Source: a virus
Taxonomy: Duplodnaviria; Heunggongvirae; Uroviricota; Caudoviricetes
Length of the DNA stretch: 25,579 bases
IMG/VR virus record: IMGVR_UViG_2531839131_000011
Strand: one strand, 5' to 3'
This document shows, piece after piece, positions 19,076 through 25,311 of the stretch. The stretch's first letter is position 1, and each line of letters starts with the position of its first letter. The notes beneath the pieces were generated by a model that was not told the origin of the DNA, did not search any database, and was given only the letters and a program-made list of their open reading frames with translations. Both the position numbers and the translations under genes were made by a program.

Positions 19076-20594
19076 CCAGACGCCCCCAGATATCGGCAAC
19101 AAAAATGGCACGGGTCAGCATGTCGATAAGTTCTGCATCATCCATCTGCGGATATAATGAAGCGGCTTTGTTCATGGCGGCTTCCGGGCCATCTTTCAGC
19201 ACAGAAAAAATGACGGGTTTCAGCAGGGGATCAACCGAACGCTGCCAGTCTTCCGGTGAGACGCCCATCCGGTCGATATCATCCTCCTGCGGGATATCTT
19301 CAGCGGATAATGCGGCCTCTTTCTGCGGACCGTTATCCGGGACAACCGGTTGAGCAGTAAACACAGCTTCATCACCGACCGGCTGTGGGATATGAAGTTT
19401 TTCCTGTATCCAGGAGACCGGAATACGCATTCCCGCCGCCAGTTTCGGAATGGCGTCAGACAGTGCCGTAATATCACCCGCTTCACTGGTATCAAATACA
19501 ATGCCCGGCAGGCGGTTAATATCAATGGTGCTGTCACTGTTCAGTGCCAGCAGGGGATAAATCAGGTCACGGTTAATACTGCGGGCAAGCTGGCCCACAT
19601 CCGCGTTACGGATTTCCCGGCGAACCTCATCATGCACTTCACCCAGCGACCGTGCACCTTTATCGCCGGCCTCTGTGGTCAGGGTGCCGCCCAGAATGGC
19701 TTTTGAAATCGCTTTTTCTGCCCAGCCAATCATCGCCATAAAGGGGTCTGACTGACCATCTGCGGCGCTCTGAAAATCCAGCGTCATCCCCATCGGAATA
19801 ATGCCACCGGCACGTCGCCCGATATCCATCACGGCCTGCATCAGCGTGGCTTTCTCGCGGTTTGTGGAGCCGGTCGGATATTTACCGACGCGCATGGGGA
19901 GTCCGTAAATTTCCAGAAACTCTGCAAAATCACGCACGGAATAGTTTTTAAAAATAAAAGGCCAGATAAGCGTGCGCACAAGGCCATTGGTGCCAACGTA
20001 CCCGGTGCGGGATTTGGCCCGGTGCATAAACCAGCCGAACGGTTGCAGCTCCAGCCCGTGATAAGACGCATCACGCAGGCGTAATTCGTTCAGATTGTCG
20101 GGGTTCGCGCAGAACAGCGCCGGATCGCGATGATGCAGCGCCACCGGCACGCGCATTTTCCCAAGCCACCCCCATTCAATCTCCTGCATGGAATAGCCCT
20201 TGAGAATGGCATCACCGGCATCAAACAGGGCATCTTCAAACCACGCCGCATCATGCAGATATTCATTCAGCATGTCGGCGTCTTTTTTCTCCTGTGCGCT
20301 GGCATCACGTGCCGGAGCGATGCGCCATTCCAGCGCCTGAATGGCAAGCCGGCGTTTGCTCAGTTCGGAAAAAAGGTGGGTGTCCTTTTCTTCCATATCA
20401 AAGGCCAGGTCAGCCTGTGCGGTCAGATCACCGCGTTCGGCATCACGCAGCATCTGCGCGGCCCGGTTCGGCGTCACACCACTGGAAGGATGCTCCTGCG
20501 TACGCTTCATGACCATTGCCAGCTCATCGCTGCGGGTCTGCATTTCATCGTCAAAATCAAACGGCTGCCCGGAAATATCCAGAATACGGCCCAT
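19056..20594 (-). CDS. H: Portal protein
   Basis: 512 aa. Immediately follows the terminase large subunit with a TAATG overlap. Confidence 0.8.
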   Translation of the reverse strand: MGRILDISGQPFDFDDEMQTRSDELAMVMKRTQEHPSSGVTPNRAAQMLRDAERGDLTAQADLAFDMEEKDTHLFSELSKRRLAIQALEWRIAPARDASAQEKKDADMLNEYLHDAAWFEDALFDAGDAILKGYSMQEIEWGWLGKMRVPVALHHRDPALFCANPDNLNELRLRDASYHGLELQPFGWFMHRAKSRTGYVGTNGLVRTLIWPFIFKNYSVRDFAEFLEIYGLPMRVGKYPTGSTNREKATLMQAVMDIGRRAGGIIPMGMTLDFQSAADGQSDPFMAMIGWAEKAISKAILGGTLTTEAGDKGARSLGEVHDEVRREIRNADVGQLARSINRDLIYPLLALNSDSTIDINRLPGIVFDTSEAGDITALSDAIPKLAAGMRIPVSWIQEKLHIPQPVGDEAVFTAQPVVPDNGPQKEAALSAEDIPQEDDIDRMGVSPEDWQRSVDPLLKPVIFSVLKDGPEAAMNKAASLYPQMDDAELIDMLTRAIFVADIWGRLDAAADH

Positions 20595-22249
20595 TACCAG
20601 CCCCCTCGTTCAAACTGGTGATAATCATCAAAATCATCGTTATCAACATCATCACCACGGTGGCGTGGTGGTAGCGGACGAACGCTGTCCTCGTCGATAA
20701 CAAAACCATTCATATAAGACGCCCTGACAGCCATACAGAGCGCCACGGCAAAGTCGCCATGTCGTCGGCCTTTACCACCTTCATCTTTTGTGCGCCCCTT
20801 ATCAATCTGCGGAATACCTTTGTCCACCTTGATGTGGAGCAGGTCATCAAGTGTGGTCTGGTGCCGGGCAATCGTGATGTTCTGCGCTTCAAACTCGCCT
20901 TTCAGTTTGGGCATCCACTCCTGATACCAGGATGCGGTCAGATTCACACAGTCGATCATCTCCGGGCCATAAATCAGACGGGCGGCTTCTGCCAGATAAC
21001 CGCCGTTACCGGTGGCATCAAATGCAGCGCCGGTAAAACGGGGCAAACGGGACAGAATGAATAAAAGGATTTGTCGCTGCTGGTCATAGGTCACATTACG
21101 CAGCTCCACGCGGAAACATTCGCGCTTGCGTAAGTCAGGCGTGATGGCAAGCGGCACAAACACCGTCAGGTCGCCACGGCGTGCAAAGTCTTCGCCCAGT
21201 ACGTGTTTATTGAGCGGCGACAGCGCATCGAGCAACGGGAGCAGCTCCTGTTCACACCAGTCCTGAACGATGCCGTGGCGCATTTGTGGTGTCAGCGATT
21301 CAAAATCGTCCGGGGCTTCAAAACGCAGAATCGGGATATCCCGCGCTGGCGTCATGGCGGCTTCAATCAGCACGCGTGACAGATAAGCGCCCCCGGATTT
21401 TTTAGGAATGCAGCCGTATTCCTCGTCAGCACTCTCTTTATTCGGCGCATTCCGGTACAGGCCATCACGCCAGGCTTTTTCCGCTTCCGGCGACCACGGC
21501 TGATTCGTGACGTAACAGATACGTCGGTACAACCCGTCAGCGATGGCATCATCCAGCGTGATGCGGTGAACGCTGTAATCCTTGCGCCCCTCGCGCGCAT
21601 CCTGAATGTACTGGTTAAACAGGTTATCGACGCCGTTATGTGTCGATATGATCCGCACGCGGGCACCCCACATGGTGAGAGCAAAGGCCGCTTTCAGGAG
21701 TTCGTCCAGGGCTTCATGAAATGCCGCCTCATCAATCACCACGTCCCCCTGCAAACCACGCAGGTTAGACGGGCGGCTTGACAGCGCCTGTACCTTAAAT
21801 CCGCTGTTAGGGAAACGGATCATATAGGTGAGGATTTCTTCTTTTTTGTCGTTGTCCCAGAAGGTCTGCTCCCAGACATCAGCTTTTGCCAGCTGGTTAA
21901 AGGCGCGGGCAAACAGGGCACAGGCGGCGATATATTCCAGCGCCATTTCCTGACGGGAACCCACATAAAAGACGTTGCGACCGCCACGGCGGCGCGGCTT
22001 TGCTGCCGTCATGACATTGCGGCCCGCTTCGGCCCATGTCAGACCGGTACGACGGGATTTTTCAGCGATGCAAATCTGGCTTTCATCCTCAAACCAGCGG
22101 CGCTGATAGCCCAGAAAAACCGGTTCATTGCGGGGCTGTGCTTCCCCGATATCGGTCACGATATTCACGCCGAGCAGTTCGGCTTCCTCACGCAGGTTGA
22201 TTTTTCGGGGGGCATGAAGGGCTTTAAGGTTGTTTTCTCTGGTGTTCAT
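20594..22249 (-). CDS. Terminase large subunit
   Basis: 551 aa from ATG 22249 (AGAGGGT Shine-Dalgarno, 7 nt after the upstream stop). Walker B-like VVIDEAAF motif. The ORF-track start at 22441 overlaps the upstream gene by about 190 bp and is rejected. Confidence 0.85.
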   Translation of the reverse strand: MNTRENNLKALHAPRKINLREEAELLGVNIVTDIGEAQPRNEPVFLGYQRRWFEDESQICIAEKSRRTGLTWAEAGRNVMTAAKPRRRGGRNVFYVGSRQEMALEYIAACALFARAFNQLAKADVWEQTFWDNDKKEEILTYMIRFPNSGFKVQALSSRPSNLRGLQGDVVIDEAAFHEALDELLKAAFALTMWGARVRIISTHNGVDNLFNQYIQDAREGRKDYSVHRITLDDAIADGLYRRICYVTNQPWSPEAEKAWRDGLYRNAPNKESADEEYGCIPKKSGGAYLSRVLIEAAMTPARDIPILRFEAPDDFESLTPQMRHGIVQDWCEQELLPLLDALSPLNKHVLGEDFARRGDLTVFVPLAITPDLRKRECFRVELRNVTYDQQRQILLFILSRLPRFTGAAFDATGNGGYLAEAARLIYGPEMIDCVNLTASWYQEWMPKLKGEFEAQNITIARHQTTLDDLLHIKVDKGIPQIDKGRTKDEGGKGRRHGDFAVALCMAVRASYMNGFVIDEDSVRPLPPRHRGDDVDNDDFDDYHQFERGGW

Positions 22250-22256
22250 AACCCTC

Positions 22257-22832
22257 TCATGCCTTACCCAGCAGTACATCACGGATACGCTGCTCCAGCT
22301 CTTCGCTGATGCCATCCTGCCCGCGCAGTTCTTCACTGACGGCGTTTGCCGCTTCTTCTGCGAATGCCTGGCGGATTTCTTTCTCGCGCCGGTGGCTGGA
22401 CATTGCCGTGGATTCCAGACGCTGTGCCGCCAGCATGGCATTTTTCAGCAGGTCAATATCCACGTCAGATTCCGGGTTTTCGATTTGCCGCATCATGGCC
22501 TTAAAAAGCTGGCTGCGAGCCATTTCCAGAATCAGCTTTGTGGTTTCGCCCATTGGCTTGTCGCCAAGTTCTGCGGTCAGTGCTGACGTCATTTCACGCA
22601 TCTGTCGCAGGTTATGGCCTACCTGCTCGACGTTCGTCGCGTAACGGTTCAGACCGGAACGGGAGAGTTTCATCTCATCCGGCAGGCCAGCGTCTTCAAT
22701 CAGTGCGTTAATTTCTTCCAGAATGCGGGCCTGTGGGATCGCTTTATCACGCAGCATTTCATGCAGCGTTTTACGTACGTTTTCCGGCAGTAAATCCACT
22801 TTTGAAGCCCGGCCCCGTGTTTTCCTGTCCAT
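22257..22832 (-). CDS. Terminase small-subunit-like protein (Mu gp27-like)
   Basis: About 191 aa from ATG 22832 (AGGAGG Shine-Dalgarno). Charged helical protein directly upstream of the large subunit. Confidence 0.55.
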   Translation of the reverse strand: MDRKTRGRASKVDLLPENVRKTLHEMLRDKAIPQARILEEINALIEDAGLPDEMKLSRSGLNRYATNVEQVGHNLRQMREMTSALTAELGDKPMGETTKLILEMARSQLFKAMMRQIENPESDVDIDLLKNAMLAAQRLESTAMSSHRREKEIRQAFAEEAANAVSEELRGQDGISEELEQRIRDVLLGKA

Positions 22833-22843
22833 CACGCCTCCTG

Positions 22844-23134
22844 TCATGCACGGGGACGAGGACGCTTGACACCGGCAACGCGGGCACGACCTTCTGCCAC
22901 ATCCTGACCCCGGGAAGTCAGCGTTACGACATAAAAGCCGCGCAGGTTTTCCACGGTGACCAGTTGCTGCTCTGCCAGCCAGTCAATCTGGCCGCGAACC
23001 ACATCACGGGAAACGTTGTGTCCGTATGCATCCAGACAGTCCTGAAGGATGGATTCGTTGGCTTCGTTATTGCAGTCCATCAGGGAACGCAGGATGACCA
23101 GACGACGGTCTTCGGTCAGAATATCGTTAATCAT
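22844..23134 (-). CDS. Small protein, possible winged-helix fold (Mu gp26-like)
   Basis: 96 aa. ATGA overlap with the upstream gene. Confidence 0.45.
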   Translation of the reverse strand: MINDILTEDRRLVILRSLMDCNNEANESILQDCLDAYGHNVSRDVVRGQIDWLAEQQLVTVENLRGFYVVTLTSRGQDVAEGRARVAGVKRPRPRA

Positions 23135-23424
23135 GAATTACTCCGGTTTACTGCGTTTTCAAGCAGCAGCTCCAGTTGATGGGAAAATGACTGCACCCGC
23201 TGGGACAGCACCCGGATATCACCGGACAGCTCTGCAATTCGCAGGCGCATTTCGTGTACATCTTCTGTGCCGGGGATGCTGGCGTAGCGGGTTTCCATTT
23301 CGGTCATCCGGTTTTCAAGACGCTCCACACGCTCGGTGCTGGCAAAACTACGACGCATCGCCCAGACGGCCCCACCGGCCACAACAGGCAACAGGTAAGG
23401 CCATAACGCTAAAACTGAATCCAT
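23131..23424 (-). CDS. Membrane-anchored coiled-coil protein (Mu gp25-like, candidate releasin for the SAR lysozyme)
   Basis: About 97 aa from ATG 23424 (GGAG Shine-Dalgarno; the ORF-track start is a GTG 18 nt upstream). N-terminal hydrophobic segment LALWPYLLPVVAGGAVWAM, then heptad-like region. Confidence 0.45.
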   Translation of the reverse strand: MDSVLALWPYLLPVVAGGAVWAMRRSFASTERVERLENRMTEMETRYASIPGTEDVHEMRLRIAELSGDIRVLSQRVQSFSHQLELLLENAVNRSNS

Positions 23425-23618
23425 TATTCTGCTCCACGGCACCAGTGGCAGTAGTTCGCCATCGGCTGCTGTCTCAGCACATCAGGCCGCAGCTCACGAC
23501 CGCAACCGGCACACAATACAGGCGGGTCATACGCCGCCGGGCGGGGAATATCACGGGTATCCCCCTGCCAGAGTTCAGCGAGCAGCAGCGCCAGCGCCCG
23601 GTTCTGGTCTTCGTTCAT
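23424..23618 (-). CDS. C4 zinc-finger protein, TraR/DksA-like (Mu gp24-like)
   Basis: 64 aa with CAGC-x17-CHWC, i.e. Cys-x2-Cys-x17-Cys-x2-Cys. Confidence 0.5.
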   Translation of the reverse strand: MNEDQNRALALLLAELWQGDTRDIPRPAAYDPPVLCAGCGRELRPDVLRQQPMANYCHWCRGAE

Positions 23619-23916
23619 AAATTTCTTTCCTTCGGGTCTCCTGTTCCCGGACTGATGCCTTGTCGCGGTTGCACTGCCCGAGCGCCATCAACAGGTCAGC
23701 ATTCCAGAGAAGGGATGCTCCCCACGTCAGGGGCTGTGGCATGGGCGGAACGGGCGTTGCTTCCGTCAGTTCTGCATCAGTTTCGGGCAGGAGCACCACC
23801 GATGGCACGGGTGCGTTTTTCGAGTTCCCGCAACCTGTCAGCAGCAACGGCAGGCACAGGACGAGTGCTGCAATTGTCACCGGTAATGGCGGTTGTAATT
23901 TTTTGTTTTGCATCAT
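23575..23916 (-). CDS. Outer-membrane spanin (lipoprotein)
   Basis: Tandem ATG at 23916/23913. MMQNKKLQPPLPVTIAALVLCLPLLLTGC is a signal peptide with an L-T-G-C lipobox. Pro-rich mature part. Out of frame with, and overlapping, the inner spanin gene. Confidence 0.55.
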   Translation of the reverse strand: MMQNKKLQPPLPVTIAALVLCLPLLLTGCGNSKNAPVPSVVLLPETDAELTEATPVPPMPQPLTWGASLLWNADLLMALGQCNRDKASVREQETRRKEIYERRPEPGAGAAAR

Positions 23917-24163
23917 GATGTTCTGTCTCGTCTGCCAGCCGTGCGGCACGATTTGCGGCACGGATAGCGGAAAATACCTGCATCGTCTGTTCCTGACCGT
24001 GTAACAACCATTCAGCAGTGTGGCGGGCCTGTTGCTCCGTCTGTAATTCACGGCGCAGCGTCTGGTTATCGTGGCAGGTGCTGTCCAGCCTGTGCCACAA
24101 CACCCCGGACAGAACGGCGGCAAACACGGCAGCCAGCAGTAAACTTTTACTGGCGAAGGTCAT
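23777..24163 (-). CDS. Inner-membrane spanin
   Basis: 128 aa. N-terminal transmembrane segment LLLAAVFAAVLSGVLW, then charged helical periplasmic domain. Starts 17 nt before the lysozyme stop. Confidence 0.6.
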   Translation of the reverse strand: MTFASKSLLLAAVFAAVLSGVLWHRLDSTCHDNQTLRRELQTEQQARHTAEWLLHGQEQTMQVFSAIRAANRAARLADETEHHDAKQKITTAITGDNCSTRPVPAVAADRLRELEKRTRAIGGAPARN

Positions 24164-24665
24164 CCGCCCCCCTGATATTCCAGATAGCCATTTCCACTTC
24201 GCGACGGTTCATCAGTCCTTTCCATTTATGGCCTGCGGCAAACACCCAGCGGGCCATCTGGTCACGCGCTCCGGCGTAATCACCGGCATTGAGTTTTTTC
24301 AGCAGCGTTGATTTACTGAATGCGGTAACACCGGTGTTGAAAATAAACGTTGCCAGCGCCGTTTTCTGATATGGCGTCAGCGGCACCCTGACAAGACGAT
24401 CGATTGCCGCATAAACCGGTTTTAAATCACTGTCGAGAAGAGCCATACACTCCGCATGGCTGTAACGGCGCATTTCGATATCCGGCCCGGTATGTCCCAC
24501 ACAGACCGTAAGCACACCGGCAATATCGCGGTAAGGCATATAAGCGATATTTTCCAGATGGATCAGAGACTGACGGGTCATTTCCTGATAACCACCCACA
24601 CCGCCACCGGCAATCGTTGCCGCCAGCAGTGCGGCTTTCAGTTTTTTTGGTATCCCCGCCATCAT
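24147..24665 (-). CDS. lys: Endolysin, T4-lysozyme-like with N-terminal SAR-type segment
   Basis: 172 aa. E-x8-D-x5-T catalytic pattern (LENIAYMPYRDIAGVLT). N-terminal Gly/Ala-rich weakly hydrophobic segment KKLKAALLAATIAGGGVGG. Confidence 0.85.
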   Translation of the reverse strand: MMAGIPKKLKAALLAATIAGGGVGGYQEMTRQSLIHLENIAYMPYRDIAGVLTVCVGHTGPDIEMRRYSHAECMALLDSDLKPVYAAIDRLVRVPLTPYQKTALATFIFNTGVTAFSKSTLLKKLNAGDYAGARDQMARWVFAAGHKWKGLMNRREVEMAIWNIRGADDLRQ

Positions 24666-24685
24666 GCTTCCCTGAAAAAATGCGC

Positions 24686-24725
24686 TGATGGCAGTCTAAA
24701 AAATCAGATGGCAGGTGCGGGATTA
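24686..24725 (-). promoter_or_regulatory. Candidate C-dependent late promoter P-lys
   Basis: Minus strand CCCGCACCTGCC ... TTTTTTAGACTGCC between the C terminator and the lys start. Confidence 0.5.
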
Positions 24726-24735
24726 TGGTGACAGG

Positions 24736-24762
24736 AAATAACCGGCAGGATGCCGGTTATTT
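24736..24762 (-). terminator. Intrinsic terminator of the middle (C) transcript
   Basis: Perfect stem aaataaccggca / tgccggttattt with 3-nt loop. The C stop codon lies inside it. Followed on the minus strand by a short U-rich run. Confidence 0.6.
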
Positions 24763-25179
24763 TGGGCTTTCAGGTGAGAACAGATCAGGCTGATGACGTC
24801 GTGTATGCAGCTTTCTCTGGCGGGCAATAATCTGGTAGATCTGCGGCTGGGACAGGCGATACTGGCGACGCAGTTCTTCCATGTTACGACCATTGAACTG
24901 GCAGTAAAGCAAATCGTCGCGTAACGCGGTCAGGATCGTATCGCCGCAGGGGATGTAAAACTGCCGCCCGCCCAGAAAACAGGACAGGGCAACGGCCTGT
25001 TTACGGGCAAGCTCACGGGGATTGCTGACGTTCTGGCGTTTCAGTTCGTTTTCCAGAATATCAATCAGATCAACCACTGAACGGGGCCAGCGTGATTCCA
25101 GTTCCGGGGCCGGGATGTTATCAATATGCCCGATTAACTGGCGAATTGCCGGATCGTGTTCAAATAAATCATGCTGCAT
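24757..25179 (-). CDS. C: Late-gene transcriptional activator C (Mor/C family)
   Basis: 140 aa. Sits directly upstream of the lysis genes, separated by terminator and promoter. Confidence 0.8.
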   Translation of the reverse strand: MQHDLFEHDPAIRQLIGHIDNIPAPELESRWPRSVVDLIDILENELKRQNVSNPRELARKQAVALSCFLGGRQFYIPCGDTILTALRDDLLYCQFNGRNMEELRRQYRLSQPQIYQIIARQRKLHTRRHQPDLFSPESPK

Positions 25180-25191
25180 ATTTTCCCCCGG

Positions 25192-25311
25192 TTAACAGAC
25201 AAAAAGATACACCACGGCACTGATGGTTATCAGAACCACAAGGGCAATCACTTTTATCGCATTAATCAGCGTGGACGGCCCGAAACATTCATCACTGAAT
25301 TTTCTGTACAT
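25192..25311 (-). CDS. Small single-pass membrane peptide (39 aa), middle operon
   Basis: MYRKFSDECFGPSTLINAIKVIALVVLITISAVVYLFVC. AAAGGGG Shine-Dalgarno. Stop is 12 nt before the C start. Too short for the ORF track. Confidence 0.4.
   Translation of the reverse strand: MYRKFSDECFGPSTLINAIKVIALVVLITISAVVYLFVC

Follow-up and report, generated by a model that had tools for sequence, protein, structure and literature searches.

The window analysed in this work is the whole stretch of 25,579 nucleotides (nt) of IMG/VR virus record IMGVR_UViG_2531839131_000011, and the subject of this work is gene 24, one small gene in that window. The window belongs to a Mu-type phage and is in reverse orientation. 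It shares 96-97% nucleotide identity with Mu, D108, and PhiR68_1 across 96% of 25 kb, and 98% nucleotide identity with Mu around gene 24. The coding sequence of gene 24 was found in the open reading frame (ORF) listing at 23424..23618 on the minus strand. It begins with ATG, ends with TAA, and encodes a product of 64 amino acids with the sequence MNEDQNRALALLLAELWQGDTRDIPRPAAYDPPVLCAGCGRELRPDVLRQQPMANYCHWCRGAE. This product is the equivalent of Mu gp24, from which it differs by a single residue (L9 in the window and V9 in Mu), and it is called gp24 hereafter. In the re-annotated Mu record, Mu_24 is labelled as a 'hypothetical protein'. The product matches PHROG 3260, which is of unknown function, over its full length (E 3.3e-42, residues 1-64 against profile positions 1-64 of 64). 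A Shine-Dalgarno-like AAGGAA was read from the sequence at 23627..23632 (minus strand), 8 nt 5' of the ATG, and a ribosome-binding site for Mu_24 is annotated at the equivalent place in the Mu record. Gene 24 is more than a chance ORF because its product is near-identical to Mu gp24 and matches PHROG 3260, and because its relatives keep the position and all four cysteines.

The four cysteines of gp24 are C36, C39, C57, and C60, which give the pattern C-x2-C-x17-C-x2-C. They bear out an earlier reading of the window that was made from its letters alone (the sequence-only reading), where a 64-residue ORF with this exact cysteine spacing had been pointed out. The AlphaFold2 model of gp24 (mean predicted local distance difference test score 84) exhibits an N-terminal amphipathic helix at residues 3-16 (EDQNRALALLLAEL; 23571..23612, minus strand). 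The family alignment exhibits conserved D4, L12, L13, and Q18 in the N-terminal part. The codon of the invariant D4 is located at 23607-23609, inside this helix, and D4 is aligned with the second Asp of the TraR DxxDxA motif in the hhalign register. Residues 17-35 (WQGDTRDIPRPAAYDPPVL; 23514..23570, minus strand) form a proline-rich, non-helical linker according to the AlphaFold2 secondary structure and the family alignment, and P25 and P33 are invariant within it. On the model, the linker would stand in place of the second half of the long N-terminal helix of TraR. Residues 36-60 (CAGCGRELRPDVLRQQPMANYCHWC; 23439..23513, minus strand) form a predicted C4 zinc finger with the DksA/TraR-type fold, which was assigned from the four invariant cysteines, the AlphaFold2 model, and Foldseek. 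V47 and L48 were mapped to the positions of TraR R48 and R49. We infer that gp24 is expressed as a small cytoplasmic protein that binds zinc, and any contact of gp24 with RNA polymerase is inferred likewise.

The i-spanin and o-spanin genes are located 5' of gene 24 and belong to PHROG 214 ('Rz-like spanin'). The o-spanin ORF, which carries the lipobox LLLTGC, was listed at 23575-24123 (minus strand). Its 3' end overlaps the 5' end of gene 24 by 44 nt in another reading frame (23575..23618, minus strand; ORF listing and Mu annotation). The Mu annotation likewise has the o-spanin gene Mu_55 (gp23.1) overlapping Mu_24. On the other side, gene 25 (23131..23424, minus strand) encodes the DUF2730 membrane-tethered 'releasin' equivalent to Mu gp25, as identified by Pfam PF10805 (E 2.6e-13) and the Mu annotation. 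The function of gene 25 as a releasin has been reported (PMC9239132). These neighbours agree with the sequence-only reading, where the gene had been placed between the spanins and a membrane/coiled-coil gene. The stop codon of gene 24 and the start codon of gene 25 share a TAATG junction at 23422..23426 (minus strand), as read from the sequence, and the Mu record has this 1-nt overlap as well. The junction suggests that the translation of genes 24 and 25 may be coupled.

The gene order on the minus strand is the C late activator (Pfam Mor), gp22 endolysin, gp23/gp23.1 spanins, gp24, gp25, gp26, gp27 small terminase, large terminase, and portal. In the Mu record, the C-dependent late promoter sits 5' of lys and no terminator is annotated ahead of gene 24. 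A scan of 22200-25300 for promoter and terminator consensus sequences gave no signal above that of shuffled sequence by which gene 24 could be a transcription unit of its own. Gene 24 is placed in the C-activated late Plys transcript, which would run through lys (the signal-anchor-release, SAR, endolysin), 23/23.1, 24, 25, 26, and then terminase, because the promoter is located 5' of lys in the Mu record and no convincing internal promoter or terminator is present.

The homology of gp24 to the DksA/TraR family is beyond the reach of standard profiles. Pfam PF01258 (DksA/TraR; gathering threshold of 24.9 bits) gave no match at E<=1, either with the window protein or with four diverged members of the gp24 family. 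NCBIfam DksA_like gave 15.3 bits (E 0.019) over residues 35-62 only, where the cut-off is 105. The profile search proposed along with the sequence-only reading had therefore failed at this level. A phmmer search of gp24 against the PDB sequences found nothing. The profile of an eight-member gp24 alignment had its best PDB match in DksA-like 2kq9 (E 0.099) with the zinc finger in register, and an hhalign comparison of the gp24 family with sequences closely related to F-plasmid TraR gave 59.8% probability (P 8.8e-5). Both matches are suggestive, not decisive. Matches to the CxxC models of NinF (E 0.0079, 12 residues), DUF7575, BsaP, and ECs_2282 were rejected as chance-level since just one cysteine pair was covered.

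The relatives of gp24 are few. A word-indexed search and an exhaustive search of 1.8 billion representatives found only proteins of 64-72 residues from Mu-like elements of Escherichia, Salmonella, and Erwinia. Long repetitive cysteine-rich matches (P0006-P0017) were set aside as spurious matches to the CxxCG region. Judged from these sequences, the gp24 family appears to be tiny and enterobacterial. The eight-member alignment has 20 invariant positions, which are M1, D4, L12, L13, Q18, P25, A28, P33, C36, C39, P45, V47, L48, Q51, P52, M53, A54, C57, H58, and C60. Relatives at 30-63% identity have the same position, and all four cysteines are present in 14 of 14 distinct sequences. The sister subgroup of the gp24 family (L020-L026, L039, L040, L062, and L070) has the spacer x16. 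The x17 spacer is typical, not fixed. Proteins with the shorter spacers x13 and x16 were also identified at the same genomic position in Shewanella (L050, L052, and L056) and Psychrobacter (L099 and L112).

A further comparison was made with the proteins encoded at the position of gene 24 in other Mu-like phages. The hhalign comparison of 14 distinct gp24-family sequences with 53 positional TraR homologues gave 93.3% probability (P 2.6e-7, score 38.2) over 60 columns, which cover gp24 residues 4-62. The aligned cysteine columns are filled in 53 of the 53 positional homologues. Reversal of either alignment, which preserves CxxC...CxxC, gave scores of 16.4 and 23.6, and 30 column shuffles that kept the cysteine columns and their spacing gave scores from 9.5 up to a maximum of 21.1. 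The TraR signal is therefore not the cysteine pattern alone, because both types of control score far lower than the real comparison. The hidden Markov model (HMM) of the positional TraRs gave 13.8 bits on the window protein (P ~3e-6 as a single comparison), the gp24 HMM gave up to 22.5 bits on the positional TraRs, and the reciprocal P values range from ~3e-6 to 5e-9.

The predicted fold is in line with this comparison. TraR, DksA, DksA2, YbiI, or Chlamydia Dks account for 9 of the 16 top matches in Foldseek against the PDB. The finger of the model superposes on those of DksA, DksA2, and Chlamydia Dks with a root-mean-square deviation of 0.5-1.1 A over 30 residues. The best two matches in the BFVD search are DksA/TraR zinc-finger proteins. 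No Foldseek E-value reaches 0.001, so the modelled fold is regarded as no more than supportive of a DksA/TraR-type finger. Many generic zinc-ribbon matches were also obtained. Taken with the profile comparisons, gp24 is very probably a remote homologue of TraR whose origin lies in the phage TraR branch of the DksA/TraR family. The resemblance to TraR/DksA zinc fingers that the sequence-only reading had noticed holds as real remote homology, given the hhalign result, its controls, the reciprocal HMMs, and the fold matches.

The genomic position of gene 24 was compared among Mu-like phages. Relatives at 41% and 63% identity retain the order gp24, DUF2730, gp26, and gp27. A small C4 ORF is located directly 5' of the Mu-type DUF2730 gene in all 29 of the IMG/VR viral contigs that have such a gene. 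A divergent gp24 subgroup is present among these contigs, with ~30% identity, the x16 spacer, another finger loop, and the shared N-terminus MDADQ..LLR[DE][IL]WQQ. A wider scan with a five-sequence alignment of the gp27 small terminase, where one genome per species was used, gave 80 Mu-like loci, 78 of them with DUF2730. A C4 ORF that ends at or overlaps the DUF2730 start was identified in 59 of these 78 loci, and the two genes overlap or are at most 15 nt apart in 53 of the 59. Seven of the 59 slot genes are gp24-like (Enterobacteriaceae, Kluyvera, Apirhabdus, and Erwinia) and about 51 are canonical TraR-like. The hosts of the TraR-like slot genes are Aeromonas, Shewanella, Photobacterium, Pseudoalteromonas, Serratia, Raoultella, Brenneria, Yersinia, Xenorhabdus, Photorhabdus, Pasteurellaceae, and Psychrobacter. 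The remaining 19 loci, mostly of Pasteurellaceae, have DUF2730 with no C4 ORF directly 5' by the criteria used (L057, L058, L063, L078, L081, L086, L088-L090, L093-L096, L098, L100, L104, L110, L111, and L115). Two of them (L057 and L100) have C4 ORFs that were filtered out by the start-codon rule. In Pasteurella phage AFS-2018a, the spanin pair is immediately 5' of DUF2730.

The identity of the slot genes as TraR-type genes is also seen in the standard profile. Three positional homologues pass PF01258: HS6 gp35 scores 27.7 bits, an ORF of Klebsiella phage Kp4866-3 scores 48.6 bits, and the ORF from a Mu-like insert in E. coli scores 45.9 bits. Pseudoalteromonas HS6 gp35 is already annotated as a 'DksA-like zinc-finger protein'. 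The slot product of the Mu-like element inside an E. coli Shiga toxin (Stx) phage (LC727895) begins with MDDSDRA, which is the DxxDxA motif. In Burkholderia phage KS10 (gp7) and in FluMu (HI1497), a DksA/TraR zinc-finger gene had already been recorded in the interval from the endolysin gene to the small terminase gene. The slot 5' of DUF2730 is the ancestral position of a TraR-type gene, since TraR-type genes occupy the same slot in most Mu-like phages sampled. The sequence-only reading had regarded the location as unexpected for a transcription modulator; the TraR-type gene adjoins DUF2730 in most of the Mu-like prophages sampled, and the location is not odd.

The residues through which TraR acts were then compared with gp24. 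It has been reported that TraR contacts RNA polymerase through the DxxDxA tip, R48 (beta' rim helices), R49 (beta'Si3), and the C-terminal helix (beta-Si1), that an RNA polymerase variant lacking Si1 is unresponsive to TraR, and that DksA/TraR-family members lacking DxxDxA and the C-terminal helix have no DksA-like action (Gopalkrishnan et al., PMC9239242). Most of the 53 positional homologues keep these residues (D3 in 41, D6 in 52, A8 in 40, R48 in 53, and E66 in 49). The full DxxDxA motif is not present in gp24. Its N-terminus reads MNEDQNRA, where D4 is the sole invariant Asp, the first-Asp position is Met1, and the Ala position is variable. The Arg at the position of TraR R48 is absent from gp24; V47 and L48 are found there and are both invariant in its subgroup, and the sister subgroup has Glu-Leu at the R48/R49 positions. 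The C-terminal helix is also absent, as the chain stops four residues past the last cysteine. The tails after the last cysteine have 4-6 residues in the gp24-like genes of the genome loci and 6-18 residues in nearly all TraR-like homologues. The N-terminal helical part has only ~14 residues in the AlphaFold2 model before the proline-rich linker. Canonical TraR-like binding and regulation of RNA polymerase is unlikely for gp24 as far as its residues can tell, because DxxDxA is incomplete, R48 is replaced by Val, and the C-terminal helix is gone. For the same reasons, the role that the sequence-only reading had proposed, that of a modulator in the RNA polymerase secondary channel, is doubtful for gp24.

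The known systems were compared with gp24 on this basis. F-plasmid TraR (73 residues; PDB 5W1S and 6N57) and the phage homologues that have been tested (lambda Orf73, P2 Orf82, VHML Orf8, and VP882 Orf61) are small proteins like gp24. F TraR and gp24 both come from mobile elements of Enterobacteria and both have an acidic-tipped N-terminal helix followed by a C4 finger, with the first cysteine at 37 in TraR and 36 in gp24. Their fingers have in common CxxCG, a hydrophobic residue at +4, Leu at +9, Pro at +13, and Ala at +15. Unlike F TraR, gp24 has no C-terminal helix, has Val for R48 and Leu for R49, retains one Asp of DxxDxA, has an N-terminal helix of ~14 residues followed by the proline-rich linker, and is undetected by PF01258. 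The gene for gp24 is in a late lysis/packaging operon, whereas lambda Orf73 comes from the early pL operon. The positional TraR-like genes (HS6 gp35, Kp4866-3, the LC727895 insert, FluMu HI1497, and KS10 gp7) are in the size class of gp24 and have detectable homology to it. In HS6, Kp4866-3, LC727895, and L038-L117, the slot gene is directly 5' of DUF2730 and usually overlaps it, like gene 24; in FluMu and KS10 the gene is between endolysin and small terminase. Unlike gp24, these proteins keep DxxDxA, the invariant Arg, and a C-terminal helix with a conserved Glu, and they pass PF01258.

The finger of E. coli DksA (151 residues) superposes on that of gp24 at 0.6-1.1 A over 30-31 residues with 29-30% identity, and gp24 has Leu at the position of DksA L126. 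Unlike DksA, gp24 has no coiled coil, no residues for binding guanosine tetraphosphate (ppGpp), no C-terminal helix, and no equivalent of R125. R. sphaeroides RSP0166 and S. meliloti SMc00049 resemble gp24 in that they have the zinc finger of the family without the motifs for RNA polymerase regulation, and they have been reported as non-functional in DksA-type assays (cited in PMC9239242). They are chromosomal proteins of 105-114 residues, whereas gp24 is a phage protein of 64 residues with one tip Asp. VP882 TraR and QisA are a co-transcribed pair that forms a complex, which may be an analogy for gp24 and gp25. However, VP882 TraR keeps DxxDxA, which is needed for its effect, and QisA is not known as a relative of DUF2730.

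The evolutionary rates of gene 24 and its neighbours were calculated in comparison with the L003 relative. The non-synonymous rate (dN) and the ratio of non-synonymous to synonymous rates (omega) are 0.365 and 0.45 for gp24, 0.146 and 0.09 for gp22, 0.293 and 0.17 for gp25, and 0.081 and 0.06 for gp27. Other gp24 pairs have omega of 0.45-0.65, and the omega of gp24 is possibly inflated because the o-spanin overlap lowers the synonymous rate (dS). The omega of gp24 is below 1 at dS of 0.7-1.2, and the reading frame and the length of 64-72 residues are retained in every locus examined. gp24 is under some purifying selection, with its frame, length, four cysteines, D4, and ~15 further positions kept. 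Several pairs of near-identical Mu-type copies have at least as many non-synonymous as synonymous changes, and some of these changes flank the cysteines (A37P and G38S). Truncated or frameshifted copies of gene 24 that encode 36-47 residues were observed in some E. coli genomes (P0004, P0005, and P0022), and the zinc finger is lost beyond residue 25 in P0005. These truncated copies suggest that gene 24 is dispensable in at least some prophages.

The explanation that we favour is that gp24 is a degenerate, truncated TraR descendant in the Mu late operon and at most an altered ligand of RNA polymerase, and we consider this account as a whole to stand at the midpoint between probable and improbable. 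A TraR-lineage gene in the ancestral slot 5' of DUF2730 would have degenerated in the clade of Mu, D108, and SfMu. The acidic-tipped N-terminal helix with D4 (equivalent to TraR D6 and DksA D74) and the four-cysteine knuckle would have been kept, and half of the long N-terminal helix would have changed into the proline-rich linker. Of DxxDxA, the first Asp and the Ala would have disappeared. The Arg for the beta' rim helices would be gone too, as would the C-terminal helix in its entirety, with its contact to beta-Si1. Such a protein could occupy the secondary channel late in infection and would be unable to drive the allosteric reprogramming of the TraR type, in which rRNA promoters are inhibited via rotation of the beta-lobe/Si1. 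The proposed mechanism, in which gp24 would at most bind the RNA polymerase secondary channel weakly or in an altered way, is put forward tentatively, at somewhat less than an even chance, and this reading is favoured because the tip Asp and the N-terminal helix of the ancestral register are retained.

A direct function in lysis is not part of this explanation. gp24 has no hydrophobic stretch of more than 10 residues and no lipobox in its sequence. It has been reported that transmembrane domains among Mu proteins belong to the products of genes 19, 20, 23, and 25 only, and that expression of only gp22 and gp25 from plasmids is enough to cause lysis (PMC9239132). gp24 is not a lysis effector, because it has no membrane or export signal and because gp22 and gp25 suffice for lysis.

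Several points weigh against the favoured explanation. The homology of gp24 is detected neither by PF01258 nor by phmmer against the PDB. The N-terminal register of the hhalign alignment is low in per-column confidence, so D4 of gp24 can be equated with TraR D6 only tentatively. As both the C-terminal helix and the Arg are missing, gp24 may not bind RNA polymerase at all. The zinc-finger loop is wholly different between the two gp24 subgroups, and if both subgroups share a job, the finger surface is probably not the interface because the loop differs completely. gp24 is also the fastest-evolving gene of its module, with the highest dN and omega, and its fast evolution fits decay or a new, changing partner equally well as a conserved RNA polymerase ligand. 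Literature searches on Mu gp24 gave no experimental or functional data, and the releasin paper (PMC9239132) does not mention gene 24.

The rival that survives best is a TraR derivative that has acquired a new function. gp24 would have left RNA polymerase, and its conserved amphipathic N-terminal helix (LLxELWQ) would bind another phage protein. The most plausible candidate is gp25, the releasin translated together with gp24, through its cytoplasmic domain, and gp26 is the alternative; such binding would tune the timing of holin-less lysis or packaging. The tight coupling of genes 24 and 25 is in its favour, both in the TAATG junction here and in the short distances or overlaps of 53 of the 59 loci, although 19 of the 78 loci have DUF2730 without any C4 gene. 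The truncated gp24 type was found with the Mu gp22-type SAR endolysin in 7 of 7 loci (L038-L042, L062, and L070) and the canonical TraR-like type in 1 of 51 (the others of L043-L117), where SAR lysozymes were counted within 2.5 kb 5'; however, this co-occurrence may be the shared ancestry of one clade, or it may reflect co-adaptation with holin-less lysis. The N-terminal helix is conserved between the two gp24 subgroups and the finger loop is not, and without the C-terminal helix the N-terminal helix would have its hydrophobic face exposed. On the other hand, gp25 is 71% identical between the subgroups and gp24 only ~30%, which gives no obvious co-evolution. A precedent is VP882, where TraR and QisA, the products of co-transcribed neighbouring genes, bind each other in a complex (bioRxiv 10.64898/2026.07.27.740977). 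Against this rival, lysis by gp22 and gp25 proceeds without gp24 (PMC9239132). We regard this rival as unlikely.

A narrower proposal is that gp24 is a TraR-derived adaptor whose exposed N-terminal helix docks on the cytoplasmic domain of gp25 or on the basic cytoplasmic tail of gp22 and thereby times holin-less lysis. This proposal is quite improbable in our estimate. If it is true, a transcription-factor fold would have been turned into a component of the lysis clock, and the occurrence of the truncated form only together with the Mu-type SAR endolysin would be explained.

Two further rivals are each distinctly improbable. The first is that gp24 is a fully functional regulator of the TraR type that binds the secondary channel, inhibits the promoters of rRNA and ribosomal proteins, and redirects the polymerase to phage late promoters, in the manner of F TraR or lambda Orf73. 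The homology to TraR, the invariant N-terminal Asp retained at the position of TraR D6, and the retention of all determinants by the ancestral slot gene agree with such a regulator, and five phage TraR homologues that have been tested all bind RNA polymerase and regulate transcription (PMC9239242). However, three experimentally important determinants are missing or changed in gp24 (DxxDxA, R48 to Val, and the C-terminal helix with E66), the N-terminal helix has just ~14 residues before the proline-rich linker, and the family members that lack DxxDxA and the C-terminal helix are not DksA-like, as mentioned above. The second is that gp24 is a decaying relic with little function of its own, where the ORF is kept mainly for the delivery of ribosomes to the start of gene 25 and by the constraint of the o-spanin overlap. 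The TAATG junction, the loss of the canonical functional residues, the highest dN and omega in the module, the excess or parity of non-synonymous changes in several near-identical pairs (including A37P and G38S beside the cysteines), and the truncated or frameshifted E. coli copies all fit decay. Against decay, the 20 positions that include the four cysteines, D4, and VLxxQPMA are invariant in members down to 41% identity, the frame and the length are kept in every locus, and omega stays below 1 at the dS values given above.

The weakest rival, a very improbable one, is that gp24 is a small zinc ribbon without kinship to TraR (for example NinF-like, or an accessory protein for structure or packaging) that has only the CxxC...CxxC spacing in common with it. 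The weak partial matches to the NinF, BsaP, and ECs_2282 models, the lack of a PF01258 match, and the many generic zinc-ribbon matches in Foldseek speak for it. Against it, the signal is lost in the cysteine-preserving controls (maximum of ~21 in 30 shuffles against 38.2), the 60 aligned columns take in the N-terminal helix, and genuine TraR homologues are found in this very slot. A role as a virion component is without support, and so is the zinc-ribbon structural protein that the sequence-only reading had offered as an alternative.

TraR homologues in phages, Mu-like phages included, were already known. The assignment of Mu's own gp24 to the TraR lineage, the near-universal coupling of a TraR gene with DUF2730 in Mu-like phages, and a natural 'minimal' TraR without the Arg and the C-terminal helix appear to be new. 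Mu is a paradigm phage, yet gene 24 is a 'hypothetical protein' in GenBank, RefSeq, and PHROGs. The findings in this work show that a TraR-type gene is a conserved component of the late operon for lysis and packaging in Mu-like phages, where it adjoins the releasin gene. They raise the questions of whether host RNA polymerase is reprogrammed late by the canonical slot proteins, and what role a natural minimal TraR has without the rim-helix Arg and the Si1-contacting helix. The truncation of gp24 is a natural test of which TraR elements serve binding and which serve regulation. For annotation the consequence is modest: we suggest 'TraR/DksA-family zinc-finger protein, divergent', and TraR-like action is not to be assumed for gp24.

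Several minor observations were made at this and related loci. In the Mu-like prophage of Erwinia tracheiphila (L062), the endolysin ORF 5' of position 1713 encodes a gp22-like SAR endolysin with an expanded cytoplasmic N-terminal repeat, MPKIPKSPKSPKSPKSPKSPKSPKSPKSLKASLL. The counterpart of that segment in Mu gp22 has K6/K7, which have been reported to make endolysin release dependent on the releasin (PMC9239132). The spanin pair of the window (23575-24163, minus strand) is overlapped, not embedded, as the o-spanin gene begins within the i-spanin gene and extends beyond its end. Three reading frames are used in this stretch of ~600 nt (23575-24163), for the i-spanin, the o-spanin, and gene 24. 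The large-terminase ORF at 20594-22441 (minus strand) has 615 residues in the mechanical listing and overlaps gp27, whereas the Mu annotation starts later and gives 551 residues; the extension to 615 residues is an artefact of the longest-ORF rule.

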